Origin: a virus
Taxonomy: Duplodnaviria > Caudoviricetes
DNA: 27,899 nucleotides
Direction: 5' to 3' (one strand)
IMG/VR virus record: IMGVR_UViG_3300037307_000118
Span: 1-27,899 of that record
Below the pieces are notes generated by a model. The model did no database searches. It was not told the origin of the DNA and worked only from the letters and a program-made list of their open reading frames with translations. Positions 3,725-27,899 of the stretch are shown in pieces (within the stretch, counting starts at the first letter, position 1; each line of letters opens with the position of its first letter). Both the position numbers and the translations under genes were made by a program.

Positions 3725-4819
3725 ATGAACGCCGAAGTCAATGACCTGCGCTCAGCGCTGGAAAGTGCCTATGACAACGCAGAAGCAGGGAGATCGACCG
3801 AGAACACCGCGCAGCCCGTTCGGGCTGAAGCAGCGCCGACCGAGACCCCCGCAGCCCCCGCAGCCCCCGTCGAAGATCGTGGCGACGGTCGCCGCGTTGA
3901 TGGCAGGTTTGCGCCGCGTGCGAAGCCCGTCGAGGCAGCCAAGCCCGACGTAGCGAAGCCTGTCGAGGCAGCGAAGCCCGAGGCAGCGAAGCCCGACGAG
4001 GCAACCAAGCCCGACGTGTCTGACAGGGCTCCGCAGTCGTGGAAGCCGGGTGCGCGGGAAGTCTGGTCGCAGTTGCCCGCTGAGGTGCGCGCGGAAGTGC
4101 ATCGGCGCGAGCGTGAGACGGCGCGCGTCATGCAGGAGACGGCGCAGGCGCGGCAGGTCACGGACTTCGTGTCGAAGCTGCAGCAGAAGTTCGCGCCTGC
4201 GCTGCAGGCTGAGGGCGTAGACGCGCTCACGGCAGCCGCGAACCTGATGAGCCTGTCTTCCCGGTTGCGCTTTGGCACGCCGATCGAGAAGGCGCAGCTG
4301 GCGGCGACGATCGTTCGTACCTACGGCGTCGATGTAGGCGCGCTGGCCGAAGCGCTCGATGGTGCGCCGCAGGGCAGCGCGCCTGCACAGCAACAGGCCC
4401 CGGTGTCTGATCCGCGAGTCGATCAGCTGTTCCAGCAGCTTGAGGCGGTCAAGCAGCAGCGGCAGGAGCAGGTGATCCGCAGGGCGACCGAGGAAGTCGA
4501 GGCGTTCGGGGCGGACAAGGAGTTCTTCTCCGACGTGCGCGACGAAATGGCCGACCTGCTCGAAGTCGCCGCCCGCCGGGGTGTTGACCTTTCGCTGGAT
4601 CAGGCGTATGAACGGGCCTGCAGGATGCAGCCCGAGATTTCGAAGGTCTTGGACGCACGGGAAGCTGCCAAGCGCGCTGAGAACACCAACCAGTTCACTC
4701 AGCGCGCCAGAGTCGCGGCTTCCAGTGTGCGGGGAACGCCGGCAACGGCGTCCACCCCATCGCCGGCGGACCTTCGTGCTTCGATCGAGGCGGCATTCGA
4801 ACAGGTCGGCGGAAGGTAA
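3725..4819 (+). CDS. capsid scaffolding protein
   Basis: Directly upstream of the capsid gene. Has an N-terminal DLRSALESAY helix, a disordered region with GRFA, APQSWK...WSQLP, coiled coils, and a C-terminal DLRASIEAAF helix. Confidence 0.85.
   Translation: MNAEVNDLRSALESAYDNAEAGRSTENTAQPVRAEAAPTETPAAPAAPVEDRGDGRRVDGRFAPRAKPVEAAKPDVAKPVEAAKPEAAKPDEATKPDVSDRAPQSWKPGAREVWSQLPAEVRAEVHRRERETARVMQETAQARQVTDFVSKLQQKFAPALQAEGVDALTAAANLMSLSSRLRFGTPIEKAQLAATIVRTYGVDVGALAEALDGAPQGSAPAQQQAPVSDPRVDQLFQQLEAVKQQRQEQVIRRATEEVEAFGADKEFFSDVRDEMADLLEVAARRGVDLSLDQAYERACRMQPEISKVLDAREAAKRAENTNQFTQRARVAASSVRGTPATASTPSPADLRASIEAAFEQVGGR
3920..4015 (+). repeat. degenerate in-frame AKP(D/E/V) peptide repeats in scaffold
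   Basis: AKPVEAAKPDVAKPVEAAKPEAAKPDEATKPD. Confidence 0.85.
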
Positions 4820-8292: not shown

Positions 8293-9919
8293 AGCGAACA
8301 AAGCCTTCGCTGAACTGACGCAGCGCAAGAGGCGGGGCCAGCGGCAACTGACGCGCCCTGTATTCATGCCGTCCCCGATGGGCGGCATCAATTCTGTTAC
8401 GAACATGATGACCGCGCCGCCTGAAGATGCGCTGTCGCTGGTCAACATGATTCCGAACGACTACGGCGTGCAGGTGCGTAACGGCTACGTCGAGCATTGC
8501 CAGCCCGTACCACTGGGCGATGGCATCAAGACGCTGATCCCGTTCGAGAACAGCGCCAGTGACACGCCTGTACGCAAGTTGTTTGCCTGCACGAGCGACG
8601 GCATCTACGACGTGACGACGGCGGGCGGTACGCCGGTCAAGGTCTACGACTTCGCCAACAAAGATGCGCGCGCAGGCTGGTGCTCGTGGGCGCACTACAT
8701 CAACACGGCGCAGGCGCAGTTCCTGCTCGTCTGCGACAACAGCAACGGGTACATCCTCTATACGGCGAGTACGGATACGTGGGCGGCAGGCACGGTCACG
8801 GGGCCTGCCACCGAATCAACCTTTGACTTCGTGACGATCTGGAAGAACCGCATCTGGTTCGTCGAGGGCAACAGCGGCCGCGCGTGGTACCTGCCAGTCG
8901 GTGAACTGACGGGCACGGCGAAGGAGTTCAACTTCGGCAACAAGTTTCGCTATGGCGGCTACCTCAAGTCGCTGTGGAACTGGACTGTCGATGGCGGCGA
9001 AGGGATGGACGATTACCTTGTCGCGCTCAGCAGCGCGGGCGACATGGTGGTTTACAAGGGAACCGACCCTGACACGACGGGCGGATTCATCATGCACGGC
9101 TCGTGGTACATCGGCCGCCCGACACAGGGGCGGCGCAATGGCGACGACGCAGGCGGGGAACTGCTGCTGCTCACGCAGTTCGGCCTGCTGCAGTGCTCGA
9201 AGCTGATCGCGGGCCTGCCTGCAACGGATGAGCAGGTGGCACTGAGCTACAAGATCAACCCCCGCATCAACCGTGTGTTGCAACGGGGCAATAACGTCTA
9301 CGGCTGGCAGATCAAGTTCGACCCTGCGAGTCAGCTGATCTTCGTGCTCTCTCCGCAGGAACAGGGCGCTGACTGGATGCAGTTCGTCTACAGCATGACG
9401 ACGCGCGCATGGGCGCAGTTCGTCGGCATTCCGATGAACTGCGCCGAAGTGCTGTTCAATAAGCTGTACTTCGGAGACAAGGACAATCGCGTTTACACGT
9501 ACTCCGGGAATCTGGATAACGTGATGCTGGATGATGCCGGGGCCAGCGCCGTGCCGGTCGAATGGACGTGGCTCTCGACGTACCAGACGCTCGGAGAGCC
9601 CGCGATCTACAAGCGCGTGCAATTCCTGCGCCCGCAGTTCATCGGGCTGGCGACGCCTTCCTACGTCATCTCTGCGCGCTACAACTTCGATCTTTCCGAG
9701 GTTGATACCACGCCGCCCTACGTCGTGCCTTCGGGCTCGTTGTGGGATTCCGCGCTGTGGGACACGGCGAAATGGAATGGCGGGTACGTTGTCGATACGC
9801 CGCCTCGTGGCGCGTACGGCATGGGACGCAGCGTTGCCATAGCGATGCGCGGGGAAAGCGCTGCCGAGACGGTGTTCATCGGCGTCGATGTACTGTTTGA
9901 TTCGGGTGGGATGCTGTGA
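8282..9919 (+). CDS. tail nozzle (tubular protein B / P22 gp10-like)
   Basis: 545 aa, aromatic and beta-rich; PSPMGGIN start, WKNRIWF, VVYKGTDP, WDSALWDTAKW near the C-terminus. Confidence 0.85.
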   Translation: MVPEANKAFAELTQRKRRGQRQLTRPVFMPSPMGGINSVTNMMTAPPEDALSLVNMIPNDYGVQVRNGYVEHCQPVPLGDGIKTLIPFENSASDTPVRKLFACTSDGIYDVTTAGGTPVKVYDFANKDARAGWCSWAHYINTAQAQFLLVCDNSNGYILYTASTDTWAAGTVTGPATESTFDFVTIWKNRIWFVEGNSGRAWYLPVGELTGTAKEFNFGNKFRYGGYLKSLWNWTVDGGEGMDDYLVALSSAGDMVVYKGTDPDTTGGFIMHGSWYIGRPTQGRRNGDDAGGELLLLTQFGLLQCSKLIAGLPATDEQVALSYKINPRINRVLQRGNNVYGWQIKFDPASQLIFVLSPQEQGADWMQFVYSMTTRAWAQFVGIPMNCAEVLFNKLYFGDKDNRVYTYSGNLDNVMLDDAGASAVPVEWTWLSTYQTLGEPAIYKRVQFLRPQFIGLATPSYVISARYNFDLSEVDTTPPYVVPSGSLWDSALWDTAKWNGGYVVDTPPRGAYGMGRSVAIAMRGESAAETVFIGVDVLFDSGGML

Positions 9920-15991: not shown

Positions 15992-18487
15992 ATGTCGATG
16001 CACGTCTACGGCGTCCCTGACACACCTGTACTGGTCAAGGGCATTGCGGTCTACGGTTCTCCCGACGTGCCCGTGCATGTGAAGTCGGGATGGGTCTACG
16101 ACGCTGCGGGCGTGCCGAAGCAGTTCTTCACCTCGGGGCGCATCGTCTCGGACGAGTTTGATTACGCGGACGGCTCGTTCCTCGGGCAGCAGGCAAACTG
16201 GATTCAGGGCAGCGGCGCGAACACGACGTTCCCGATCAGCAACGGCAAATGCCGCGGCATCTATGACACGTGGTACCCGCCGTACTACTGTTTCTGGAAC
16301 GATGGCGGCGTCGCGTTCTCGAACGACCAGTTCGCGGAAATCGTGTTCGAGCGCGTGGCTTCGGGCGAGGGTAACATCGGCCCCGGCGTGCGGATGACAG
16401 GTTCGCAGGGCTACTTCATCGAAGCGCATAACTCCTACGCTGTCGTGCGTCGCTGGAACGACTACGCGGTTCTCTGGGAAGGCAACGTCTCGATTCCTGA
16501 TGGCGCGGTACTGCGCATCACAGTGGAAGGCACTGACCTCTACTGCGAAATTAACGACGTGGAATTCTTCCGCACGACTTCTGCGACGCTCACGGGCGGT
16601 TCGCCGGGCATCGCAACCGTGTCACCTTCCGGTGCGAATGGCCCGAATGCGCTCTCGTGGCGGGGCGGTGACCTCGTGACCGAGGCAGAGCCGCCGCCTG
16701 CAGGAACGCCGGGCGATCCACCGGACCTCACGGCCATGCGGGTGTCGGGTGGCGTGGAACTGAGCGTCTACGCGACGCCGCCTGTCGGCAAGAGCATCAT
16801 CCGGTACGAAATCGAGTACTCAGCCGATGGCGTGTCGGGCTGGACCTCGACGCCGATTCCCGAAACGCTCGACATGTGGGGCAAGCGGTCCCGCGTTCCT
16901 GCCTCGCTGGAAAACACGACTCCGACGAAGTGGGTCGATCCCTCGGGCACGCTCGACGGGCACGCGGCGTACACGACCATTCAGGCAGCGGCCGACGCTG
17001 CCGTTCCCGGTGACGTGATCGTGGTCAACGGCACGTTCCACGAGAACATCGTCATCCTCAATTCCGGCACGCACGAGCAGCCGATCATCTTCCGCTCGTT
17101 CAACTACAGCGCGCCTGCCGTCGTGGACGGGCAGATGACGCTGCCGCTCGGGTGGAACGAGTCAGGCTATGCGCGCGGCAGTTCCACGCTCGTCAACATC
17201 ACGGCGAACTACGTTTACTGGGAAGCGATCAACGTCATCAACTCGGCACGTGCCAACATCATGGGTGGTCCGTCGAACAACAACGGCCATTTCCTGCAGG
17301 ACAACGAAGTCAATGAATGGTGGACTGGTATACGTATTACGCGCTGCGTGCTTCAGCGTTCTTACGAACGCATCGCGCACTTCTTCAACTGCGACTCCGC
17401 GATCGTCAGCGGCAACTGGTTCCTCGAAGGAGTCCTCAGCCAGTGGACAGGCCCCGTTTCAGGATGGCCGGGCGCGATATCAGTGTGCGGGAAGAACTAC
17501 ACGTTCACGGACAACATCATTGCTCAGGCAATCGGAGAAGGAACGCATCTTGCGCACCATATCTCGGCCGGCGGGCCGGACCGGCACACGCAGCTGGACG
17601 GAGCCTATTTTGCAGGCAACGTCATTTTCGATACGTGGAGTAACCCCCTCTACCTGACGAATGTGCGGAACATCATCGTCGAGGGCAACCTGATCTTTCA
17701 CACGGGCGACATTAAATTCTGCAAGAACCGCGACGATCAGCCGTACCAGCATCCGCCGGATGCCTGCTCCTTCGGCAGTGAGAGCGGCGATACCAGCGTA
17801 GGCGGTTACCCGCCCAGCGATGGCTTCATCGGCGGCTACAACATCGATTTCAGGAACAACGTCATTGTTGGCGGGCTCGTCAACTTGGTGTTCGACTACT
17901 GGCTTTCGTGCCAGTACAAGGACGTGAAGATCAGGAGCAACACGATCTACTCCGTGCAGCCGATGGGAGTCACGGGTCTCGGTTATGAGGCACTGATTCA
18001 GAACGAGCCGACGAACACGGAGAACCTGACAGTCCGCAACAACATCTTCTACGAGCCGGCGCATGCGATGTACCGCAACTACAATGCGCTCATCGGCACG
18101 AATCTGATCAATTCGAACTGGTTCAACCAGACGCCCCCGCCCGCGCTGGCCGCAGGCGCGATCATCGGCACTGATCCGGGGCTGACGAACGCGGCGTACC
18201 TGCCCTACGACCCGTGGCCGAATCTCGCCATGTTCGACACGAGCAACTTCCGGCTCGTGGATTCGAGCGTGTGCATCAACGCGGGCGTCCCGGACACGGA
18301 CATTACGGTGGACTGGTTCAACCGTCCGCGCCCTGTCGATCACATGGACTTGGGCGCGCACTCCCTGTCGCGGCCCACGAACGGCAGCGCGATATTCTCC
18401 GACCTCGGTCGCTACTGGCGGGCGCGCTATGTGGACAGCGCACAGACGGCTTCGGGCTGGTCAGATGTAGCGGATCGCGGGCCGTGA
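15992..18487 (+). CDS. receptor-binding adhesin / putative polysaccharide depolymerase (lectin-like, FN3 and right-handed beta-helix regions)
   Basis: YTTIQAAADAAVPGDVIVVNGTFHE beta-helix cap, Asn-ladder repeats (FTDNII, FAGNVI, VEGNLI, FRNNVI, VRNNIF), and closing motif NFRLVDSSVCINAG...RP...DLGAH. Confidence 0.85.
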   Translation: MSMHVYGVPDTPVLVKGIAVYGSPDVPVHVKSGWVYDAAGVPKQFFTSGRIVSDEFDYADGSFLGQQANWIQGSGANTTFPISNGKCRGIYDTWYPPYYCFWNDGGVAFSNDQFAEIVFERVASGEGNIGPGVRMTGSQGYFIEAHNSYAVVRRWNDYAVLWEGNVSIPDGAVLRITVEGTDLYCEINDVEFFRTTSATLTGGSPGIATVSPSGANGPNALSWRGGDLVTEAEPPPAGTPGDPPDLTAMRVSGGVELSVYATPPVGKSIIRYEIEYSADGVSGWTSTPIPETLDMWGKRSRVPASLENTTPTKWVDPSGTLDGHAAYTTIQAAADAAVPGDVIVVNGTFHENIVILNSGTHEQPIIFRSFNYSAPAVVDGQMTLPLGWNESGYARGSSTLVNITANYVYWEAINVINSARANIMGGPSNNNGHFLQDNEVNEWWTGIRITRCVLQRSYERIAHFFNCDSAIVSGNWFLEGVLSQWTGPVSGWPGAISVCGKNYTFTDNIIAQAIGEGTHLAHHISAGGPDRHTQLDGAYFAGNVIFDTWSNPLYLTNVRNIIVEGNLIFHTGDIKFCKNRDDQPYQHPPDACSFGSESGDTSVGGYPPSDGFIGGYNIDFRNNVIVGGLVNLVFDYWLSCQYKDVKIRSNTIYSVQPMGVTGLGYEALIQNEPTNTENLTVRNNIFYEPAHAMYRNYNALIGTNLINSNWFNQTPPPALAAGAIIGTDPGLTNAAYLPYDPWPNLAMFDTSNFRLVDSSVCINAGVPDTDITVDWFNRPRPVDHMDLGAHSLSRPTNGSAIFSDLGRYWRARYVDSAQTASGWSDVADRGP

Positions 18488-18657
18488 AGCCCGCGATCCT
18501 GCTTCTGTGCGCGCTGCTGGCAGGCTGCAGCGCTGTGCGAACGGAAACGGGCGTCGTGATCTGCTTGGGCTTCTGCTGGCACTTCAGGCAGGCGGTGGAG
18601 AAGCAGCCTGATTCGAGGGAGCCTGCGCCTGCGCCTGCGCCTGCGCCTGCGCCATGA
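18484..18657 (+). CDS. small lipoprotein (57 aa)
   Basis: GTGA overlap start; MKPAILLLCALLAGC is a signal peptide II with lipobox LAGC. Confidence 0.7.
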   Translation: MKPAILLLCALLAGCSAVRTETGVVICLGFCWHFRQAVEKQPDSREPAPAPAPAPAP

Positions 18658-18754
18658 TCTTATTCAGCAGCGGCAGTGCGTCGCGGATCGCCTGCTGTGA
18701 AAGCACCTGCAGGATGTAATCGACTTCCTTCTCGGTCAGCTTCAACTCGAACAT
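18584..18754 (-). CDS. small helical phage protein (56 aa, not in ORF track)
   Basis: Strong RBS GAGGAGG; MFELKLTEKEVDYILQVLSQQAIRDALPLLNKIMAQAQ... Confidence 0.8.
   Translation of the reverse strand: MFELKLTEKEVDYILQVLSQQAIRDALPLLNKIMAQAQAQAQAQAPSNQAASPPPA
18621..18653. repeat. hexamer microsatellite (GCCTGC)5
   Basis: Five perfect copies plus GCC, inside two overlapping antiparallel ORFs. Confidence 0.95.
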
Positions 18755-18766
18755 TCCCGTGCCTCC

Positions 18767-18934
18767 TCAGCGGGTCATGATGAAGTAGAACGCGGCAGAT
18801 ACGCCGATCAGCGCAACTACCTGCCATGCGCGCCAGCGGGTCTTCGTCCAGCGCGGCATGCCCGACAGGGAGCGCAGATGACGCTCTGCGCGCAGCGTGT
18901 CCTGAGACAGGTTCCTGAATCCTTCCGGGTGCAT
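18767..18934 (-). CDS. small membrane protein (55 aa, not in ORF track)
   Basis: GGAG RBS; MHPEGFRN...WRAWQVVALIGVSAAFYFIMTR with a C-terminal hydrophobic helix. Confidence 0.7.
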   Translation of the reverse strand: MHPEGFRNLSQDTLRAERHLRSLSGMPRWTKTRWRAWQVVALIGVSAAFYFIMTR

Positions 18935-18937
18935 GGG

Positions 18938-19204
18938 TTACTCCGCAATGTCCAGATGTTTCGGGCAGAGCCTGTACGCGTGCAGAGAAAGTACCTCGCC
19001 CTTCGTGTAGTGGCAAACCTTCAGGTCATCCGTGAGGAACGCCTCGCCGCGCAGGTAAGAGCGCTCTGCGCGCTGCAACGGCAGGTCCTTGAACACGAAG
19101 ATCGCAGTGCCGATGATCGCCGTCGTCCAGAGTGTCAGGTAGACGAACGGGCGAACCGCGTTGTCGGCAGGAAGCTCGCCCCGGTGGAAGTCAGGGTAGT
19201 TCAT
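18938..19204 (-). CDS. single-pass membrane protein (88 aa)
   Basis: Hydrophobic FVYLTLWTTAIIGTAIFVF followed by a small domain with 2 Cys; ATGA-coupled to the upstream ORF. Confidence 0.7.
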   Translation of the reverse strand: MNYPDFHRGELPADNAVRPFVYLTLWTTAIIGTAIFVFKDLPLQRAERSYLRGEAFLTDDLKVCHYTKGEVLSLHAYRLCPKHLDIAE

Positions 19205-19314
19205 CGTGCCCCCCTGTCGAGCATGCAGGCCACGCGCACGAACTGGCGACGGAACAGCAGGAAGGTCAACAGGTCGAGAACCGCGCAGGTCAGGAAACCG
19301 AAAACGAACATCAT
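19201..19314 (-). CDS. hydrophobic mini-protein (37 aa, not in ORF track)
   Basis: MMFVFGFLTCAVLDLLTFLLFRRQFVRVACMLDRGAR; ATGA overlaps at both ends. Confidence 0.65.
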   Translation of the reverse strand: MMFVFGFLTCAVLDLLTFLLFRRQFVRVACMLDRGAR

Positions 19315-19505
19315 GGCGTCATCCCCTTGTCAGCTGGTTGTACCCGCAATTCGCCGCGTCGTACGCGGTCGCAGAACTCAAAAGCTGCACGCACGGACAG
19401 CAGCGTATTGCGCCCCGTCGAAGCCAGCTGCAGCAGTTCGTCCGAAGTCAGCCGTTGCAGGTTCACGGGCAGATCGTTGCGCAGCCACGGCGAGACCTTA
19501 ATCAC
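19311..19505 (-). CDS. hypothetical protein (64 aa)
   Basis: GGGGAGGAG RBS then GTG at 19505; overlaps both neighbours. Confidence 0.65.
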   Translation of the reverse strand: MIKVSPWLRNDLPVNLQRLTSDELLQLASTGRNTLLSVRAAFEFCDRVRRGELRVQPADKGMTP

Positions 19506-19641
19506 GGCGCTCCTCCCCGGCCGCGCGGCGAATTTCGTGCAGCCTGTCGTAGAAGCTGAGCGCCCGGCGAGCGGCGGCACATACCGCGATCAGCACGAAC
19601 GTCAGTGCGGCACTCAGCAGAAAGGTCAGAAGGCCCCTCAT
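19498..19641 (-). CDS. small membrane protein (47 aa)
   Basis: GAGGA RBS and ATGA overlap; MRGLLTFLLSAALTFVLIAVCAAARR. Confidence 0.65.
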   Translation of the reverse strand: MRGLLTFLLSAALTFVLIAVCAAARRALSFYDRLHEIRRAAGEERRD

Positions 19642-19841
19642 CGATGCATCCTCTGCCTGACTTGCGCCCGCCAGTTCAGCCAGTGGCGCTGGCTTCCCAT
19701 GTCCTGCGGAATGCCGTGCTTGAAGCGCCTGCCGTCCGCAGTCTCGACCAGCCACCAACGGTGCTTGCTGTGGCCCGTTTCGATGATGCGCAGCCCCAGT
19801 TCCCGCAGTATCCGCTCCGCCTCGCGATAGTCGTTACGCAC
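19638..19841 (-). CDS. HicA-like small basic protein (67 aa)
   Basis: Helix-3 strands-helix pattern: RILRELGLRIIETGHSKHRWWLV...DGRRF...WRAQVR. Confidence 0.6.
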   Translation of the reverse strand: MRNDYREAERILRELGLRIIETGHSKHRWWLVETADGRRFKHGIPQDMGSQRHWLNWRAQVRQRMHR

Positions 19842-20628
19842 TGAACTTCTCCCGGCAAATGGGGCCGATACCGAAGTCGATCGACACCGGGTCGGTCAGC
19901 GGGCGCGAGCAGCAGGCGCAGCGCCCCGTCAACACGCCCTCGTCGCGCGCGGTATTCAGCGGGTCGGCTTCGATCTTGTGCAGCATGGCCAGCGCTTCGG
20001 CCAGCGCGGCATCGCGCAGGTACTTGCGGGACTGCGTGTAAACGCACGTAGCGCTGTCGATCCGTCCGGCGATTGAGCCGCCCCATTTCACCCAGATCAG
20101 GCTGCCGTCGTTCTTCAGGCTCAGTGTCAGCTTGCCGACCGTGAACCGCGCGAACCTGTTCAGGTTCACTAGCCCGCAGATAACCGGCAGGGTGATGGCC
20201 GGAGCAGGGACGGGCGCAGGGGCAGGGGCAGGGGCTGCCACTGACTGCACCAACCGCTCAACGTAGGGGCGCTGGCGATCGGTGAAGCGGCCATACTGCT
20301 CGAAACCGCTCAGAAGGCTCGTGGCAAAGCTCGTGTCGCGTCCCTGCAGGTACGGCAGGGCGGCCTTGAGGGCGGCTCCCAGCGCCTTATCCGGGCTCTC
20401 TGCGGGGGCGCTGACCAGCCGCTCGGCATGCGGGCGCTGGCGATCGGTGAAGCTGCCGTAGCGGGTGAATCCCGCCAGCAGGCTGCGGGCAAAGTCCGCA
20501 TCGCGGGCGGGCAGCGCCGGCAGAGCCGCCTGTAGTGCCACTGCGAGCGTGCTGTCGGTACTGATCGGGGTCTGTACGGGAGCGCAGACGATGGCCTGCG
20601 CGACGGTCTGCTTCCAGTTCGTGTTCAT
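19834..20628 (-). CDS. DUF6011-like zinc-binding domain protein with duplicated N-terminal helical module
   Basis: RBS AAAGGAG, ATG 20628; C-terminal GRCACCSRPLTDPVSIDFGIGPIC; two ~42-aa repeats containing FAxSLL...YGxFTDRQRP. Confidence 0.85.
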   Translation of the reverse strand: MNTNWKQTVAQAIVCAPVQTPISTDSTLAVALQAALPALPARDADFARSLLAGFTRYGSFTDRQRPHAERLVSAPAESPDKALGAALKAALPYLQGRDTSFATSLLSGFEQYGRFTDRQRPYVERLVQSVAAPAPAPAPVPAPAITLPVICGLVNLNRFARFTVGKLTLSLKNDGSLIWVKWGGSIAGRIDSATCVYTQSRKYLRDAALAEALAMLHKIEADPLNTARDEGVLTGRCACCSRPLTDPVSIDFGIGPICREKFSA

Positions 20629-20650
20629 GCGCGTCTCTCCTTTGGCTTCA

Positions 20651-20710
20651 GGAGGCGGCACCATGCCGCCCCTTGAAACCGGATCATACGGACTTCTTAG
20701 CCGCAGTCAA
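20651..20710 (-). promoter_or_regulatory. sigma70-type early promoter with 5' leader hairpin
   Basis: TTGACT (20710-20705), 16-nt spacer, TATGAT (20688-20683), then GGGGCGGCA-TGG-TGCCGCCTC. Confidence 0.8.
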
Positions 20711-20713
20711 CAT

Positions 20714-21007
20714 TTAGTTCGCTGCCTCGGGCCTGACCGTCCATTCAGGCAGGTACAGGTCCGGCCGCAGATCCGCAGGACAGAAGTCGCCGAGACGGCA
20801 CAGAGGCAGGACCCACTCAGCAGGGATTGGCATGGTCGGGCGCCTGCGCGCACGGCTCGTGTAGACCGTCACGGTAGCGTGGGACGCATGTCCCAGTCGC
20901 TTGCCGATGATCGCCGGCGAAACGCTTTCCCGCAGCTTCACGAGCGGGTGGACAAGCCTGCCCGTGGAGTCGGCGATCAGCTTGGGCTTCTTCGATGGCT
21001 TCTTCAT
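20714..21007 (-). CDS. Cro/YdaS-like helix-turn-helix regulator
   Basis: IIGKRLGHASHATVTVY HTH-like segment; IPAEWVLPL...ADLRPDLY carries the LRPD signature of Cro/YdaS proteins; AAGGA RBS. Confidence 0.75.
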   Translation of the reverse strand: MKKPSKKPKLIADSTGRLVHPLVKLRESVSPAIIGKRLGHASHATVTVYTSRARRRPTMPIPAEWVLPLCRLGDFCPADLRPDLYLPEWTVRPEAAN

Positions 21008-21011
21008 GGAG

Positions 21012-22385
21012 TCATTCCTTCTTCAGTGCGGTCATGAGGGACTTCTGGGTGCGATCCTTCGAGCGCAGGGCTTCGAGTACGCGCTCATCAATCGTGTTAA
21101 CAGCGACAATGTAGTGAATCGTGACGGGCTTCGTCTGTCCCTGCCGGTACACGCGCGCAATGAACTGATCGAATTCTTCGAGGTTCCACGTCAGCGTGAA
21201 CCACGCGACCGCGTTGCCGCCCGCCTGCAGGTTGAGCCCGTGCGCGACGCTGGCCGGATGCGCGAGCAGTACCGGGATTTCACCCCGGTTCCACGCATCG
21301 ACGATGCGGTTCGATTCGCCAATGCCGATGCCGCCGCCAAGGTACGGAATGTCCTTGTCCTTGAGGTGCGCGCGGATGCGCTCCACCTCGTGCTGGAACT
21401 GCACAGCGACCAGCAGGGGCTGGCCCTCCTGCTCTTCGATCAGGTCGGCAAGGGCTTCGATCTTGGCGTCGTGCAGGTGCACAGCGCCCTCGGTGCCGTA
21501 CACGCCGCCGCCGACGATCTGCCGCAGCTTCATGCCCTTCGCAGCGGCATTGGCCGCCGTGACCGCGCCCGATGTCAGTTCCGCGTAGAAGTCGTCTTCA
21601 ATGTCCTTGTAGGTGCTCTGCGCGCCAGCAGGCAGCGTGACCTCGATGCGGTTCTCGATCTTGCGCGGCATCTGCAGGTAATCCTCGGCCTTGAGCGCAA
21701 GCGTAATGTCCGCGATCTTGGCCTGAACGCGCGCCTGCGTGTCGCGACGCGGCGTCCAGAGCGAGTAGCCACCGTAATGCCGCTCTTCGGTGAAGTACTC
21801 GCGCCGGAAGTGCGTAATGAACCGTCCGAGGCGCTGGCCGCCGTCAAGCATGTAGATCTGCCCGAACAGGTTCTCGATCCCGTTCGGGGCTGGCGTGCCC
21901 GTCAGGATCCAGACCCGGCTGAAGCGATCGCGCAGCGCCTTCAGCGTCTTGTACCGCTGCGTCTGCGTGTTCTTCACCTTGGTGGACTCATCGAGGCACA
22001 GCACGTCGAAGGGCCACGGCTCGCCGCGCGCGGTCAGCTTCGCCAGCTGTGCAGACAGCCATGCCAGCCCCTCATAGTTGATAACGTACACGTCGGCTTC
22101 GCGGCGCAGCAGCACGTCCTTCTTCGGCCCGTGCAGGACCGCGACGCGCAGATGCGCGAAGTCCGTCCATTTCTGCACCTCGGTCGGCCAGACGCGGTAG
22201 CAGGGGCGCAGCGGGGCGACGACCAGCAGGCCGCGCGCCGCGTTGTTCTCCCTGAGCACCGAGAACGCGGCCAGCGTAGTTGAAGTCTTGCCAAGGCCGG
22301 GCTCGGCGAACATGCCGAATCCCGGCTTGCTTACCATCTCGGTCAGGGCACGTAGCTGGTACGGATGCGGGGTCCACGGGGTCAT
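21012..22385 (-). CDS. SNF2-family superfamily II helicase
   Basis: Walker A EPGLGKT, motif II LDES, motif III LTGTP, GLNLQ, motif VI ARVYRQGQ. Confidence 0.95.
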   Translation of the reverse strand: MTPWTPHPYQLRALTEMVSKPGFGMFAEPGLGKTSTTLAAFSVLRENNAARGLLVVAPLRPCYRVWPTEVQKWTDFAHLRVAVLHGPKKDVLLRREADVYVINYEGLAWLSAQLAKLTARGEPWPFDVLCLDESTKVKNTQTQRYKTLKALRDRFSRVWILTGTPAPNGIENLFGQIYMLDGGQRLGRFITHFRREYFTEERHYGGYSLWTPRRDTQARVQAKIADITLALKAEDYLQMPRKIENRIEVTLPAGAQSTYKDIEDDFYAELTSGAVTAANAAAKGMKLRQIVGGGVYGTEGAVHLHDAKIEALADLIEEQEGQPLLVAVQFQHEVERIRAHLKDKDIPYLGGGIGIGESNRIVDAWNRGEIPVLLAHPASVAHGLNLQAGGNAVAWFTLTWNLEEFDQFIARVYRQGQTKPVTIHYIVAVNTIDERVLEALRSKDRTQKSLMTALKKE

Positions 22386-22708
22386 CTGGTTCTCCTGCTC
22401 CCGGCACCATGCCGGGGGAGCGTGAGAATAGGGTCACCATTAGTCGCCGTCAACACTTCCCGGAAGTCTTCGACCGATCTGACATAGGCCACCGGATGCC
22501 CCATGCCGTTCAGTACGCCGGACCAGTAGTGCTGAATCCGGCTCGTCCGTCCCCCACGGGGGCGCTTGAACTCGATCAGGGCGTGGGTGCCGTCAGGACG
22601 CAGCAGAAGCCTGTCAGGGAAGCCCGCGAGACCATGGTGCAGCTTGGTCAGCAGGCCGCCGTGCTGCGCTGTAATGGCCCTGCAGGCCCGCTCGATGGAT
22701 GCCTCACG
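22382..22708 (-). CDS. VRR-NUC nuclease (start codon unresolved)
   Basis: REASIE...GFPDRLLL...IEFKRPRGGRTSRIQ...VRSVEDF matches the VRR-NUC PD-(D/E)XK pattern. No in-frame start codon at the expected position. Confidence 0.8.
   Translation of the reverse strand, partial: REASIERACRAITAQHGGLLTKLHHGLAGFPDRLLLRPDGTHALIEFKRPRGGRTSRIQHYWSGVLNGMGHPVAYVRSVEDFREVLTATNGDPILTLPRHGAGSRRTR
22397..22453 (-). promoter_or_regulatory. sigma70-type promoter with leader hairpin, embedded in the 3' end of the VRR-NUC frame
   Basis: TTGACG (22453-22448), 17-nt spacer, TATTCT (22430-22425), then CCCGGCA-TGG-TGCCGGG and the AGGAG RBS of the helicase. Confidence 0.75.
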
Positions 22709-23396
22709 CCGCCCGGCAGGGGCCGCCCTTGGCTTGGTTGTACGGGCATCCGGCGCAGAATCGGTTCGGGCGGGGCGGGTACTCGTCCGCGCCGAGAAGC
22801 CTGCCTGCGCGCTGCTCCCATTTGCGGGCGAGCTTGGGGGCATCGGCGCGTTTAAACGTTTTGGCATGAGGTTCCTCGTGGTCGAGATACCAAAGCTCGC
22901 CCTGCACTTCCTGCACGCTGTCGAACTTGGCGAAGCCTGCCAGTGCGTAGACCTCGACCTGCTCCATGTTCTGCGGATAGGGCTTGCCGGTCTTGAAGTC
23001 GATGATGACCAGCGTGTCGGCACCCGGCTGGTAGTGCGCGTCTATCTTCATGCGCAGCCACAGCGGGCCGTTGACGAGCGGGTGCCAGCCTTCTTCCAGT
23101 TCCCATTGCTGTTCGGGGATGGCACCGAATGCCTTCAGCCCCTGCAGCTGCGCGCGCCATGCGGGGCCGATTGCCGGATGCAGCCCCTCGGCGCTGACCT
23201 CGCCCAGCAGGAAGTGCTCGCACGTCAGATGGACTTCGGTACCACGGTCCATGGCGGGTGAGCTTCTGGCAGGCACGAGCCTGTAGCCGATCGCCTGCCA
23301 GTCCGCAGGCTCGAACAGGTAGCTCCAACGGTACTTGGCGGGGCACGTCTCGAAGTCCTTGAGGGCGCTGATCGTCCAGTGTTCGCGCTGCTTCAT
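22704..23396 (-). CDS. PD-(D/E)XK exonuclease, Cas4/AddB-like with probable Fe-S cluster
   Basis: SALKDFETCP, RGTEVH, KIDA, IIDFKTGK, QVEVYA and C-terminal CAGC...C (1+3 Cys). Confidence 0.9.
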   Translation of the reverse strand: MKQREHWTISALKDFETCPAKYRWSYLFEPADWQAIGYRLVPARSSPAMDRGTEVHLTCEHFLLGEVSAEGLHPAIGPAWRAQLQGLKAFGAIPEQQWELEEGWHPLVNGPLWLRMKIDAHYQPGADTLVIIDFKTGKPYPQNMEQVEVYALAGFAKFDSVQEVQGELWYLDHEEPHAKTFKRADAPKLARKWEQRAGRLLGADEYPPRPNRFCAGCPYNQAKGGPCRAA

Positions 23397-23482
23397 CGTG
23401 CTGTGCTCACGAAGCGGGGAAGCCAATGAGAACCACGATACCGAAAGCTCTGATGAATCCCATGTGCGTAACTCCCCCGTGC

Positions 23483-23767
23483 TCAGGCTTGCCCTGCGCA
23501 GCTGTCCTTCTCGCGCAGCGTGTTGGCCCTTTTCAGCGATTCGAACAGCAGCCGCATCGCCTCAACCGACGGCCTGTCGGCATCCTTCGACAGCAGCGCC
23601 GCCGCAGGGCAGAGGATTTCAAGCGCCGACTCTTTGTCGCCTTCATGCAGGTAGTAGTGCGCGCCGAGGATCACGTCACGCAGGAGTCGCCGCAGCACGA
23701 ACTCAGCAAACTCAGCCCCTAACGAGGTGAAAAAATTCTGCAGGATGGCGTCATCGTTTGCAGCCAT
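23483..23767 (-). CDS. hypothetical protein (94 aa)
   Basis: Fills the gap between polymerase and exonuclease on the operon strand. Confidence 0.6.
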   Translation of the reverse strand: MAANDDAILQNFFTSLGAEFAEFVLRRLLRDVILGAHYYLHEGDKESALEILCPAAALLSKDADRPSVEAMRLLFESLKRANTLREKDSCAGQA

Positions 23768-23801
23768 CAGCCGGCCTGCTCTGCAGTCAGTTCAATGCGC
23801 T

Positions 23802-25613
23802 TCATTTCATTTCTCCGAAGTTGGTACCGTAAGTCGGGTCGGTCTTGGTCGGTACGTCGAGCCTGAATGCTTCGACCATACACTGATCGAGCAGCGCGCT
23901 TGCCTTCTTCACCTTGCCCTTCGGCGCGCAGCCGACCAGCTGATCGTGGATCGTCATGAGGAAGCGCGTGTCGGTGCCCCTGATCTGCGGCCACCAGTTA
24001 CGCATCGCCTCCTTCGTCTGGTCAGCGCTGCCGCCCTGAATGAGGTAGTTCAGCAGCTTGTACTCTAACGTCCGCACTTCACCGCGCACCATCTCAGCCG
24101 GGGGTGAGTAGTAGCGCCGTCCGCCAAGCGTCAGGATGCATTCCCCGCGCCGGCCTATGCCTGAGACTTCGCGCATCAGCGCCTTCACGCTCGGCAGCGC
24201 GCAGTCATAGGCGTCCATCATCGTGCGCGCCGTCATCTCAGGCACGCCCAGCGAAGCCCCCAGTCTGGCGATGCCCATCCCGTAGACCTTGCCGAAGTTG
24301 ATTGTCTTGGTTGGCTTGCGCTCGATGCCGACGCCCGTCACCCTGTTGATAAGGTCACGCACGAACACGTGCAGGTCAAGGTCCGGGTTGTCGCGGTACG
24401 CCTGCGCCAGCACGCCATCTTCGTAGTGCGCGAGCAGCCGGAACTCCTGCTGGCTGTAGTCACGCGAGAACAGGACGTGCCCCTTCGGCGCGATGAGGTA
24501 GCTGCGCAGGTTCGGAAACGTCGTCCATCCGGCCGCGCAGCCCCACTTCTTCATCAGCGCGTGCAGCTGCTCGTACTTCTCCGGATTCGTCAGGTTCTGC
24601 AGATTCGGCGAGGAAGAGAGCCGCCCCGTGCGCGCGCCGTTGTCGGAGTAGTCGCGAACCTGATTCCAGTTGCAGTGCAGGGCCGTGCCCTGTTCCAGCC
24701 ACGGGCGCATGTACGTGGAGAGGCACTTCTCGATCGCGCTGCGGTAGAGCAGCAGGCCCTTCACGCGACAGTCAGGCAGCGCGGCAAGCAGTGCGTCCTT
24801 CGACGTGGAGAGCTTCCCGCCCGGCGTACGGGGCAGATGAATGCGCCCATCGCGGCTCAGGCACTCAGCCAGTTCGTCGCCCGAGTCGAAGTTGCCGGGG
24901 GCCGCGCCGCCCTGAATCTCCTTCGGCCACAGCATCCGCAGGTGCCGTTCGGTCATCACGAGCGCCTGCTCGTAACGGGCCGTGTCCCGTGCGAGCCGTC
25001 TGTGGTCCAGCGGAATGCCCTGCGCCGAATTGTCGAGCAGCATCGGCACAAGGTCGCATTCACGCCTGTAGGCTGCGGACATGCCCGCTGATCCGACCAG
25101 CGGCTGCAGATGGTTGTACAGGGCCAGCGTGCACTGCGCGTCAGCGATTGCGTAGGGACCGACCAGATCGGCGGGCGCGGCGCTGATGAGCATTCCGCAC
25201 TGCCTGTCAGTCGGCGCGCGCCCCGTGGGCATCTTCACGTTGGCCTGCAGCCAGTGGCGCACAGCGTCACGCTCGACGGGCAGGCGTTTCAGGTACCGCT
25301 GCGCCAGCGGCTTCAGGCCAAGCTCGCCGTAGGGGTCGAGCAGGAAGGCGAGGAACATCGTGTCGTTTACACGCTCCGGGAACGGCAGCCCCATGCGCTC
25401 GTGCGCCACGGCAATGTCAAAGGCCGCGTTGTGACACAGCAGCGGCTCGTTCCAGTTGCGCCGCAGCACGTCGAGGCCCGCTGCTTCCGTGGCGTTGTTC
25501 ATCGTGGGGTGTCCCCACGCAAAGTAGTCCGTGGGGGTCGCCACGCCAACAGGCTGCGGCGGGTAGGCAGGACGAGGCTCGATGGCCTTCGTCTCGAAGT
25601 CGAAGCAGAACAT
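23802..25613 (-). CDS. polA: DNA polymerase family A (3'-5' exonuclease plus polymerase)
   Basis: ExoI DFET, ExoII HNAAFD, ExoIII YAIAD; RTGRLSS, motif A DYSQQE, motif B RKPTKTINFGKVYG, NYLIQG, motif C IHDQ. Confidence 0.97.
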   Translation of the reverse strand: MFCFDFETKAIEPRPAYPPQPVGVATPTDYFAWGHPTMNNATEAAGLDVLRRNWNEPLLCHNAAFDIAVAHERMGLPFPERVNDTMFLAFLLDPYGELGLKPLAQRYLKRLPVERDAVRHWLQANVKMPTGRAPTDRQCGMLISAAPADLVGPYAIADAQCTLALYNHLQPLVGSAGMSAAYRRECDLVPMLLDNSAQGIPLDHRRLARDTARYEQALVMTERHLRMLWPKEIQGGAAPGNFDSGDELAECLSRDGRIHLPRTPGGKLSTSKDALLAALPDCRVKGLLLYRSAIEKCLSTYMRPWLEQGTALHCNWNQVRDYSDNGARTGRLSSSPNLQNLTNPEKYEQLHALMKKWGCAAGWTTFPNLRSYLIAPKGHVLFSRDYSQQEFRLLAHYEDGVLAQAYRDNPDLDLHVFVRDLINRVTGVGIERKPTKTINFGKVYGMGIARLGASLGVPEMTARTMMDAYDCALPSVKALMREVSGIGRRGECILTLGGRRYYSPPAEMVRGEVRTLEYKLLNYLIQGGSADQTKEAMRNWWPQIRGTDTRFLMTIHDQLVGCAPKGKVKKASALLDQCMVEAFRLDVPTKTDPTYGTNFGEMK

Positions 25614-25630
25614 GAGTTTCGTCTCCGGGG

Positions 25631-25705
25631 AAAGAGCCGATGCGGGCAGCGCTCGGCAAACACGCCTTGGTGACGACGGCAGGGAAAGGAGACTACCCTG
25701 CCGCC
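25631..25705 (-). terminator. two stem-loops between SSB-like gene and polA, second one terminator-like
   Basis: On the minus strand GGCGGCAGGG-N11-CCCTGCCGTC, then GCCGAGCG-CTGCC-CGCATCGGC followed by TCTTT. Confidence 0.5.
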
Positions 25706-25720
25706 GATCGCCCGATCAGG

Positions 25721-26497
25721 TCAGAACTTGCGCTTGCGGGCAGGCGCTGCGACAGCCTTCGCCTTCGCCGGCTGCTCCTCCGGTACCGTGTAGCCCTTGC
25801 TCAGTTCGCGCTCAGCCTCGTCGAGCCGCGAAGCAATGGCATCCATGGTCGCATCGTCCTGCTCGAACACGGTCGCCTGATAGCTCAGGGCGTACTGCGT
25901 ACGCGGATCGACCTCGTTCGTCAGCATCGTCACGACGCCCCAGATGGGGCCATTCGGCAGCAGCGCGTCCACGTAGCTGCGGAAGCCCTTGGAGTTGAGC
26001 ACCGAAGGTGCGCCCGTGATGATCTGCGCCGCGCGCACCCGCTCAGGCGATTCGAGCGCGTCAGCGTGAATGGCCGCGAATACAGCGCCCTCCTTGCACG
26101 CCTTGCCCTTGCCGTTCTGCGCAGTGCCGAACTCGTTCAGGCGGCAGATCGCGCAGCGCTCCGACTGCGGCACTGCCGCGTTGCCCGCAGGCTTCACGCC
26201 GTCGAGCGAGTAGCAGTCAGGCGACGCGTACACGTCGGGCTGGTACATCGCCGAGTAGTACGTGCGCTCGTAGCCGTAGGAGAGAATCACGAGCGGCAGC
26301 GGATTGTCGAGACGGTTGCCCGCAAGAGTGATCGCGCCGCCCTTGAAAGACAGCCGGTTGCCGCTCGACTGCGGCAGCTTGGCCGCGACTTCCTTCGACT
26401 TCGCGATGGACGCCGCTGCCTTCTCGCGCCAGTTGCTGACAACCACTGCCTTCGTGGCAGCCGTGGCCAGCGCAGTGCTCTGCTTCTTCGATGCCAT
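25721..26497 (-). CDS. putative ssDNA-binding/recombination protein with four Cys
   Basis: RBS GAGGA, ATG 26497; PDCYSLDG...CAIC...NEFGT...GKGKACK pattern typical of the gene adjacent to phage polA. Confidence 0.75.
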   Translation of the reverse strand: MASKKQSTALATAATKAVVVSNWREKAAASIAKSKEVAAKLPQSSGNRLSFKGGAITLAGNRLDNPLPLVILSYGYERTYYSAMYQPDVYASPDCYSLDGVKPAGNAAVPQSERCAICRLNEFGTAQNGKGKACKEGAVFAAIHADALESPERVRAAQIITGAPSVLNSKGFRSYVDALLPNGPIWGVVTMLTNEVDPRTQYALSYQATVFEQDDATMDAIASRLDEAERELSKGYTVPEEQPAKAKAVAAPARKRKF

Positions 26498-26555
26498 GGT
26501 CCGTTTCCTCAGTTGCTCAGTGAACCGCAGGGACCGCTGCGGTGCCGGTTGATGA

Positions 26556-26584
26556 AGACTATATGAGGCCACTCCGACCCGCAA
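26556..26584 (-). promoter_or_regulatory. possible sigma70 promoter for the SSB-like gene
   Basis: TTGCGG, 17-nt spacer, TAGTCT in a ~100-bp intergenic gap; followed by hairpin ACCGCAG-CGGTCC-CTGCGGT. Confidence 0.45.
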
Positions 26585-26598
26585 CCAGACGCTGTCAA

Positions 26599-26991
26599 CT
26601 ACCTGCGCGTCGTCACGCTCAGGTCCGTGCGCTCTCCGGGGCGTACGCCGGGGATGTTCAGGCCATCCTCCCACCGCACACGGCACGCGCCGACTGCGGG
26701 GCGCTTCTGCACGAGGTCCCACGCCTTCATCCTGCCAACGTACTCGAAGAATGCGCGGTCGTCGTACAACTCCGCGAACGTCGTGCGCTTGAGGCTCACA
26801 GTCGCTTCCTTCACCGCGACGCTTTCGAGCTTCGCCGCGATCAGCGCATCGCGCAGTTCGTTTTCCAGCGCATCAGCCGCGTCCTTCAGCGGCTTCAGCT
26901 TGGCTTCGGCCTTCTTCACTGCCTGCTGCGCCTTCCACAGCGCCTTCGCGGCAGCCTGCAACTCGGGCAGGGACCTGATGGTGTCCGTCAT
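26599..26991 (-). CDS. conserved phage replication-module protein (coiled coil plus small domain)
   Basis: N-terminal coiled coil, FFEYV...WDLVQKR and IPGV near the C-terminus; usual neighbour of the SSB-like gene. Confidence 0.8.
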   Translation of the reverse strand: MTDTIRSLPELQAAAKALWKAQQAVKKAEAKLKPLKDAADALENELRDALIAAKLESVAVKEATVSLKRTTFAELYDDRAFFEYVGRMKAWDLVQKRPAVGACRVRWEDGLNIPGVRPGERTDLSVTTRR

Positions 26992-26993
26992 GG

Positions 26994-27311
26994 CTACATC
27001 ACCCCCGCCTGCGTGCTGGTCGCAATGGTGCGGCAGAGGTTCACTGCCTGCCCGCGCACGAGTCCGAGGCCACCGTCATCGGAGTGCATGTAGGCGGCGA
27101 TGAAGCACTTGAGCGTAACCTCCGCGCTGGGCGTGCCCGCGCAGAGATCGACGGCCAGTCCGCGAGGCATCTCAAAGGACGATGCAGAGAGCAGCATGTA
27201 GCACTTCACGGGCTCAGGCAGCTTGGCGAACTCGGGAGTCGCGGGCTCCGCGCCCGCTGCGACATCCGCAGCGAGCACGAGCAGGGAAGGGATCAGGTAT
27301 CGGGTAATCAT
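26994..27311 (-). CDS. putative secreted protein with two Cys-pair repeats
   Basis: RBS AAAGGAG; hydrophobic N-terminus ending AGA; KC...RGLAVDLC and KC...RGQAVNLC. Confidence 0.75.
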   Translation of the reverse strand: MITRYLIPSLLVLAADVAAGAEPATPEFAKLPEPVKCYMLLSASSFEMPRGLAVDLCAGTPSAEVTLKCFIAAYMHSDDGGLGLVRGQAVNLCRTIATSTQAGVM

Positions 27312-27323
27312 GGTTCGTCTCCT

Positions 27324-27551
27324 TTACAGGTCGTCGTTGAGGTCGTCGATCTTCTGCGCATCGGCATGCGACTGCGCAACCAGCTGCTTGTCGAGCCGGC
27401 GCTCCATCCTGCGCAGCGCCTCGCGCGACCTGTCCCACGCGCGTACCGCGCGGGCAAGCCTGCGCTCGATCCGCTCGTGCGCTTCGAGCGCCTTCGCGTA
27501 AGTCGCGCCGGGGCCGCGCCTGCCGCGCGGGGCGTCCCTGAGGACAATCAC
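27324..27551 (-). CDS. hypothetical basic coiled-coil protein (75 aa)
   Basis: GTGA overlap with the upstream gene, GGAG RBS. Confidence 0.65.
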   Translation of the reverse strand: MIVLRDAPRGRRGPGATYAKALEAHERIERRLARAVRAWDRSREALRRMERRLDKQLVAQSHADAQKIDDLNDDL

Positions 27552-27820
27552 CGGACACTCCGCTTGTAAGCGAGCGTCGTGGCGTCCGCCGCAAATTCGC
27601 CCGCGATGCGCAGATTGGTGAGGAACCGGTCGTAGTCGCCGTTCTCAAGGTGCAGCAGGGCGGCCTGCGCGAAGCTCGCGGCATTGGCCGCTAAACCACG
27701 CTCACTGACTCCCGACCCGCCGACCGGCATGGGGGTGCTGGTCTGGTTCTGCTTCACGAGCGCACAAACCGTGCGCGAAACACGGTTGCGGGCGTTGCCG
27801 ATCTGCCTTGCGATTGTCAT
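27548..27820 (-). CDS. hypothetical early protein (90 aa)
   Basis: AAGGAG RBS; first ORF after the promoter at the window end. Confidence 0.7.
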   Translation of the reverse strand: MTIARQIGNARNRVSRTVCALVKQNQTSTPMPVGGSGVSERGLAANAASFAQAALLHLENGDYDRFLTNLRIAGEFAADATTLAYKRSVR

Positions 27821-27841
27821 CTGATCGTCTCCTTCAGGTTA

Positions 27842-27899
27842 GGGCAGCACCATGCCACCCATGAGCAGGCACTCTACAGGGGTTATTAGTACCTGTCAA
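27842..27899 (-). promoter_or_regulatory. sigma70-type early promoter with 5' leader hairpin
   Basis: TTGACA (27899-27894), 17-nt spacer, TAGAGT (27876-27871), then GGGTGGCA-TGG-TGCTGCCC. Confidence 0.8.

Follow-up and report, generated by a model that had tools for sequence, protein, structure and literature searches.

We describe an RNA hairpin at the predicted 5′ end of the three early transcripts of a tailed phage, in a window that is the entire 27,899-base virus contig of IMG/VR record IMGVR_UViG_3300037307_000118 (G+C about 64%). The hairpin is a real RNA leader element. We give about an even chance to the proposal, drawn from comparative sequence, that it is a 5′-terminal protective stem-loop that would keep RppH and RNase E from entering the message. 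Its most interesting feature is a preference for one kind of loop across phage lineages, which is unexplained.

Three promoters and three hairpins

A scan of positions 17900-27899, where shuffled sequence is expected to give 1.2 promoters, finds only three that are sigma70-like, with -35 boxes at 27899, 22453 and 20710; we call them P3, P2 and P1 (Table 1). The core of the hairpin, GGCATGGTGC, has exactly three exact matches in the window, all on the minus strand (20658-20667, 22404-22413, and 27847-27856), and the three further sites that differ from it by one base are no more than chance would give. An earlier note, made from the letters of the window alone, had placed three hairpins 11-15 nt behind the -10 boxes and ahead of a ribosome binding site (RBS), and had seen the core nowhere else in the window. 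Both observations are borne out: the core starts 14 nt (P3), 11 nt (P2), and 15 nt (P1) after the -10 hexamer, and a GGAG follows 11 nt (P1), 4 nt (P2), and 9 nt (P3) past the stem end, and then a start codon. The coordinates of the hairpins and the positions of their G-U pairs also stand as that note gave them. As a random control, a 10-mer common to three random minus-strand 30-mers was found in 1 of 200,000 draws. When the isolated hairpins 1, 2, and 3 are folded as RNA, the z-scores are -3.4, -2.4, and -2.8; for the whole leaders they are only -1.6, -1.4, and -0.3.

Conservation and covariation across the clade

Relatives were collected with the helicase and with an alignment of the small open reading frame (ORF) beside P1, and comprise three phage contigs and eleven metagenome contigs; the DNA polymerase used as query returned no relatives. 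The helicases of the three IMG/VR relatives are 70-77% identical to that of the window phage, and one of these relatives, G001, is a complete 39-kb genome. We picked 29 promoters by eye, requiring a plausible -10 box and a downstream Shine-Dalgarno sequence, and excluding reverse readings of the palindrome, matches inside genes, one contig (L270) that duplicates another (L266), and two hairpin-less promoter-like sites (G001 32756 and G002 17494). The hairpin is present at 23 of the 29 curated promoters, or 23 of 31 if those two sites are counted; 22 were recovered by script, and the other is the divergent promoter of G002, whose Shine-Dalgarno sequence the script mis-parsed. Three of the hairpin promoters are in the window, four in G001, and six in G002.

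The element consists of a GC stem of 5-10 pairs and a pentaloop, with a C-G closing pair in 16 of 17 distinct hairpins. The loops of these 17 are GUGGU (nine), AUGGU (three), and GAGUU, GUCUU, AUUCC, AUGUC, and ACGUC (one each); L271, with AUGGU and a shifted closure, was left out of the tally. The RUGGU loop is found in 12 of the 17, and in the other five it is replaced while the fold is kept. In every case the two end positions of the loop read G-U, A-U, or A-C (34/106 in the background), a hint that they may form a wobble-type closure. The core of G001 and G002 is GCG-UGG-UGC, including at the divergent promoter on the opposite strand. What is conserved across the clade is only the fold, the position, and the preferred RUGGU loop; the exact core, which the earlier note had called invariant, is so within this genome but not beyond it. 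In a comparison that drew on the clade genomes and on phages BUCT555 and AXL3, GCRUGGUGC has stems of 6-9 pairs behind promoters and of 3-6 pairs elsewhere (12 vs. 11 sites, P = 3e-5). BUCT555 and AXL3 themselves have no promoter-proximal RUGGU hairpin.

The stems covary, as the earlier note had proposed from three copies. For this analysis we used an ungapped set of 12 hairpins anchored on the RUGGU loop, with two near-duplicate RUGGU leaders excluded. In this set 95% of the cells are paired, and six of the seven pairs show two-sided changes. The covariation is 0.77, compared with 0.20 in shuffled alignments (0 of 500 shuffles reach the observed value) and at most 0.37 in slid alignments, figures that are not to be read as probabilities given that the sequences are kin. 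Internal wobbles of the stem, read on the sense strand, are six G-U versus two A-C. Covariation, position, and wobble pairs together support the claim that early transcripts begin with a hairpin formed by the RNA.

The position of the stem is best defined on its upstream side. In 16 distinct hairpins, the distance from the -10 box to the start of the stem is 7-12 nt (mean 9.3, standard deviation 1.4), while the stem lies 1-11 nt from the Shine-Dalgarno sequence (standard deviation 2.8) and 11-23 nt from the AUG (standard deviation 3.2). The stem begins about 2 nt past the predicted start, and the Shine-Dalgarno sequence is outside it. Using a simple start rule, which gives a predicted +1 only, the number of unpaired 5′ bases is at most two in 17 of the 23 hairpin leaders and at most five in all 23. 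Five of the six hairpin-less leaders are just 15-18 nt long, and because of this we regard the hairpin as an add-on module. In L266, the helicase leader is the DUF6011 leader cleanly minus the hairpin. The comparison of leaders suggests that such modules move between genes. The helicase leader of the window (22385-22420) is closer to a G002 early-gene leader (20401-20367) than to the orthologous helicase leader.

A proposed 5′-terminal protective stem-loop

The hairpin likely forms as RNA once the first 25-30 bases exit the polymerase, and the folded stem, right at the beginning of every early message, would block RppH, and then RNase E, with the ribosome site left open. Shut-off of transcription would likely be handled apart, by a Cro-fold protein on an inverted repeat over the -35 box. 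The loop is favored but replaceable, and any reader of it would more likely be a host factor than the phage Cro. The start sites (taken from the -10 spacing), the approximately two unpaired 5′ bases, and the longer life of the mRNA are all predictions from sequence.

We propose 5′ protection because the stem is anchored to the start, its letters vary freely, its loop is replaceable, and the hairpin is absent from very short leaders. The fold survives replacement of the loop and therefore fits a steric element. According to PMC8833179 and PMC3997798, neither RppH nor RNase E can do with fewer than two unpaired 5′ bases, and both favor three or more; RppH also favors a purine as the second base and is blocked by a stem-loop at the 5′ end. 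The predicted starts here are mostly AU or GU. Promoter-proximal GC hairpins with varied loops, which are common in phages (see below), are also in line with protection. The 5′ stabilizing stem-loops of the ompA/papA type (RppH-RNase E pathway) described in those two sources have in common with our element a stable stem a few bases from the predicted 5′ end, an open ribosome site, and a fold that is kept whatever the stem letters. Conservation of structure rather than of stem sequence is what this class demands, and it is what the covariation shows. The differences are that here there is a preferred RUGGU loop, common to paralogous leaders and to unrelated phages, and that stabilization is predicted only. 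Of the functions that the earlier note had offered, a 5′-end protection signal is the best supported.

Several observations weigh against a protective stem. Start sites are only predicted, so that the distance of the stem from the true 5′ end rests on the -10 spacing, and transcripts from bacterial promoters in any case often begin with a purine followed by U. Since two unpaired bases are the minimum for RppH, protection would be only partial. Folding energies by strand give no advantage to the sense strand (better in 8 vs. 7 of 17 hairpins). At P1, in an alternative fold, the 3′ arm of the hairpin (CUCCU) pairs with the Shine-Dalgarno sequence (20637-20655, minus strand). A steric guard leaves unexplained both the retention of RUGGU across paralogous leaders with different stems and the UGG preference in unrelated phages described below, and the nearest-neighbor energy of RUGGU is unremarkable (31st-50th percentile). 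Finally, a large model of synthetic untranslated regions is reported to find decay rates unaffected by hairpin height (PMC11541907), and RppH acts on only about 10% of E. coli mRNAs (PMC3997798). As a separate observation, the CUCCU pairing at P1 is a possible switch, and it is not seen in the orthologous leaders.

How the first messages of lytic phages that use the host polymerase compete with host mRNA after transcription is poorly understood. If 5′ protection is true, a short and portable protective module would be a simple answer that could also serve as an expression part. Should the loop prove irrelevant, the element would be an ordinary 5′ stabilizer in a new phage clade.

A loop preference in unrelated phages

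An IMG/VR scan for a promoter followed by GGCATGGTGCY gives 81 stretches, 36 of them distinct. Two are tRNA 5′ ends; the other 34 include 19 with an RBS and 12 with stems of at least 7 pairs. When the triloop is left free (GGCA-NNN-TGCC), TGG is the commonest loop, yet it makes up only 5 of 90-96 distinct loops, which tempers any idea of the exact core as universal. In a control for the middle base of the loop (promoter plus SGC-RUNGU-GCS, in 27 of the 64 IMG/VR parts, with clade contigs and two artefacts removed), 31 of 71 distinct cases have G there; it is G in 18 of 31 with stems of at least 5 bp, and in 10 of 14 that have both stem and RBS, where 25% is expected; among weak cases without RBS it is G in 8 of 25, and the contrast between strong and weak is not significant (Fisher P = 0.08). 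A rough estimate, scaled from the 10/64 sample with the free triloop, puts AUGGU at about 2.7 times what is expected per loop; where stem and RBS are both present, and with start-codon artefacts removed, the enrichment is about 9-fold.

Promoter-proximal GGGC-N5-GCCC in phages has 106 distinct cases with many loops, 44 of them with an RBS. RUGGU occurs in just one of the 106, and NUGGN in four, all four linked to an RBS (4/44, P = 0.005-0.02). In 1.8 Mb of non-clade loci, RUGGU is found in 0 of 24 terminator-like hairpins and in 2 of 294 other strong hairpins. Unrelated phages mostly have a single promoter-proximal copy, with a second copy in 1 of 80 pattern-selected loci. In phage leaders, then, GC 5′ hairpins with varied loops are common, and UGG is a favored minority.

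The preference for UGG in unrelated phages hints at a host reader. RUGGU would then be a docking tag near the 5′ end for a conserved host component (the RNA polymerase exit channel or NusA, a 5′-decay enzyme or decay-blocking protein, or the 30S subunit of the ribosome), a pan-phage tag on which unrelated phages have converged for early expression and which gives their messages priority over host mRNA. We consider this doubtful, although the middle-base and NUGGN counts, the enrichment of AUGGU, and the near absence of RUGGU from terminator-like and other hairpins all speak for it, as does the retention of RUGGU in L273 despite an altered closing stack. Against it are the five replaced loops of the clade, the single RUGGU among GGGC-N5-GCCC cases, the Fisher test, and the rarity of second copies. 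No candidate factor emerged either; taking GGA as the consensus of CsrA/RsmA, no clade loop contains it. The earlier note had suggested a core recognized by a protein, which is an overstatement for an element whose loop is replaced in 5 of 17 distinct hairpins and which 6 of 29 promoters lack, while the loop preference of unrelated phages keeps a host reader possible. If a host factor does read the UGG loop, this would be an undescribed step of bacterial RNA recognition, exploited by many phages.

Other instances of the loop fall outside these counts. Of the matches found by BLAST in cultured phages, one (PVA8) is a terminator, two lie inside genes, and one is a long intergenic GUGGU hairpin of Streptomyces phage Satis (L524:601-640), just ahead of an RBS and with no obvious promoter. 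A complete 54.6-kb phage, G009 (L518, L521), has two more long RUGGU hairpins before RBSs, without TTGAC-type promoters.

An operator-like repeat at the -35 box and a Cro-fold protein

Almost every promoter of the clade carries GTTGAC-N3-GTCAAC, or a degenerate form of it, over the -35 box. It is a perfect palindrome in G001 and G002; the window has GTTGAC-N3-GRCTAA, with TACTAA at P3. The 97-aa ORF next to P1 has a confident predicted fold (pLDDT 91), whose best structural match is the Cro of Xfaso 1 with a middling Z of 6.5 (root-mean-square deviation 2.2 over 62 residues); the top matches are all helix-turn-helix (HTH) regulators, and 4 of the 11 members of the family of this ORF match the YdaS family (best E 4.5e-4). 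We infer that this Cro-fold protein binds the -35 repeat as DNA. In the window, a deviant recognition helix accompanies a deviant operator half-site, with L267 as a partial exception. Within the limits of a poorly resolved tree, a single recognition helix, NH[ST]TASIY, accompanies five loops (GUGGU, GUCUU, AUGGU, AUUCC, and AUGUC), which makes it improbable that Cro reads the loop. In G003, L266, L267, and L268, the helicase-Cro promoter has no hairpin but retains the operator-like repeat. Together, the -35 repeat and the Cro-fold gene form an Aca1/Aca2-like layout.

Weighing the alternatives

This layout raises the question of dual control, with the Cro-fold protein acting on the -35 repeat and also on the leader hairpin, where it would block the ribosome late in the early phase. 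As described in PMC13551039, the Aca1/Aca2 motifs of acr-aca operons share with our phages a promoter inverted repeat, a hairpin directly after the start and ahead of the RBS, an HTH gene inside the regulated unit, and several co-regulated operons; in addition, all three copies in the window have the first loop base changed to A and an altered operator half-site, and these go along with the deviant helix. Here, in contrast, the HTH is Cro/YdaS-like, loop identity does not follow the HTH helix, the repeat persists at helicase-Cro promoters that lack the hairpin, the loop recurs in unrelated phages, and no acr genes were found by family match in Pfam or PHROGs, among early ORFs of which many are unannotated. 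The same source reports that Aca10 and Aca12 failed to bind their motifs and that Aca1 bound without silencing, and we consider dual control improbable. Somewhat less probable still, the hairpin may be a passenger of a promoter cassette copied among sites; its loop would then be inherited from a common source, and other stable hairpins, or the lack of one, would serve as well. Such cassettes are known as PeSLs in the T4-type phages RB49 and phi1, and they also join a repeated sigma70 promoter, a GC stem-loop, and a Shine-Dalgarno sequence (PMC2839356). G002 bears similar signs of copying, with long repeats (26-27 nt) around three promoters and two near-identical leaders, and the six promoters without hairpin, as well as the likeness of the window helicase leader to a non-orthologous one, would fit. 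PeSL stems are described as terminators that for the most part lie over or ahead of the promoter, whereas here the stem is transcribed first, 7-12 nt downstream of the -10 box, and has no U-tract; the copies are 3-6, they also head core replication genes, and they belong to a podophage clade of about 39 kb. PeSLs share about 100 bp that drive gene shuffling; in our phages, the repeats of G002 are 26-27 nt long, and the P1, P2, and P3 cassettes share little beyond the promoter boxes (1-4 of 8 spacer positions). Compensated stem changes indicate selection on the fold, and descent leaves the UGG preference in unrelated phages unexplained.

The two remaining options come from the earlier note. A boxB/nut-like site for an N-like antiterminator of the phage is suggested by a promoter-proximal hairpin with a conserved pentaloop, as in lambda nut. 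It is also suggested by the divergent promoter of G001 and G002, which carries the hairpin; no other hairpin-type promoter was found on its strand, that of the primase, terminase, and virion genes. Recruitment of antiterminators to leader hairpins is known, as for LoaP (PMC12691694). The loops here are of neither the GNRA nor the UNCG type, they are replaceable, no word resembling the usual boxA consensus stands beside any hairpin, and every operon has its own promoter. There is little to read through: a stricter scan that did not extend to Rho sites finds no terminators on the early strand of the window, where weak in-gene matches are at chance level, and no terminator stands between promoter and gene. 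The leftward early arm of G001 and G002 has just one terminator, after DUF6011. Among the early proteins scanned there is no match to an antiterminator family, to NusG/KOW, or to any other RNA-binding family, N proteins being hard to detect. We regard a nut-like site as very unlikely. The other option, a DNA operator or cruciform over +1 to +20, has in its favor that the core is a spaced palindrome and that, folded as DNA, the two strands of the P1 and P2 hairpins do equally well. The arms, however, vary freely in their letters with pairing kept, in compensated changes that include G-U wobbles. It is always the transcribed strand that reads RUGGU in the loop, even at the divergent promoter on the other strand, the template strand of P3 folds poorly (z -0.75), and a separate operator-like repeat is already present on the -35 box, all of which leaves an operator at +1 the least probable of the readings. 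A protective 5′ stem-loop is the reading that we retain.

Several further candidates were set aside. N4-type DNA hairpin promoters have a template triloop of the GNA/GAG type and are used by a virion RNA polymerase of the phage; here the template loop is CCA, sigma70 boxes stand upstream, and no RNA polymerase is found among the scanned window proteins. Ribosome stalling at an SD-like GGUG (resembling a Shine-Dalgarno sequence) and mimicry of the tRNA D-loop were ideas too short to test. For an antisense partner, 7-8-nt complements to the loop occur at many places, none of them an intergenic loop among the matches listed, in a contig that lacks about 11 kb of the phage. Rfam has 0 matches at gathering thresholds, and none over the hairpins at E-values up to 10, in agreement with the earlier note, which did not recognize a described family. 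The literature covered, mostly as titles and the starts of abstracts, contains no description of the element; supplementary motif figures are outside that scope and could bear on novelty.

Genome setting and further features

The plus strand of the window carries the virion genes and the minus strand the replication and early arm, which encodes a family-A polymerase, a PD-(D/E)XK exonuclease, a VRR-NUC protein, an SNF2 helicase, and a DUF6011 protein (Table 1). The closest capsid from a cultured phage is that of Stenotrophomonas phage BUCT555 (71%). A search of a genome collection gave a single weak partial match, and no host. A contig from a second study is identical to window positions 20515-20735, with zero differences.

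Table 1. Promoters, leader hairpins, operator-like elements and adjoining genes in the window
Feature	Positions	Strand	Description
Promoter P3	27871..27899	-	TTGACA, 17 nt, TAGAGT
Operator-like element at P3	27886..27899	-	degenerate, TTGAC-N3-TACTAA; putative function
Leader hairpin 3	27842..27860	-	8 bp incl. two G-U, AUGGU loop; predicted +1 near 27862
Shine-Dalgarno GGAG	27829..27832	-	for 90-aa ORF 27548-27820 (no family match)
Promoter P2	22425..22453	-	TTGACG, 17 nt, TATTCT
Operator-like element at P2	22440..22454	-	GTTGAC-N3-GACTAA; putative function
Leader hairpin 2	22400..22416	-	7 bp, no G-U, AUGGU loop; predicted +1 near 22418
SNF2-type helicase gene	21012..22385	-	first behind P2; Shine-Dalgarno 22392-22395
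97-aa Cro/YdaS-like HTH protein	20714..21007	-	clade-conserved, last gene ahead of P1; candidate binder of the -35 repeat
Promoter P1	20683..20710	-	TTGACT, 16 nt, TATGAT
Operator-like element at P1	20697..20711	-	GTTGAC-N3-GGCTAA; putative function
Leader hairpin 1	20652..20672	-	9 bp incl. one G-U, AUGGU loop; predicted +1 near 20674
DUF6011-containing protein gene	19834..20628	-	first behind P1; Shine-Dalgarno 20637-20640

The contig stops precisely at the TTGACA box of P3 (27899), probably an assembly break at a repeated promoter. Given that the complete relative G001 is 39 kb long, the contig lacks about 11 kb of the phage; the primase, the terminase, and further early genes of G001 are absent from it. 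The sole early-arm terminator after DUF6011 lies at 24579 in G001 and at 8835 (minus strand) in G002. In G001 the early-arm terminator precedes the last small leftward gene, and in G003 a terminator follows that gene.

The genomes of the clade also have strongly over-represented dispersed words: GTTTAAAC with 18 sites in G001 and four in the window, CTTTAAAG with 15 sites in G002, CTAACTAC with 28 in G001 and 23 in G002, and also CTATCTAC. These words are often found at RBS-start junctions and in the loop of a plus-strand terminator. In BUCT555 (L255; for example at 3892, 6485, 16569, and 31136), variable inverted repeats flank the promoters and hold TTGACA between their arms; hairpins with other loops occur in several leaders.

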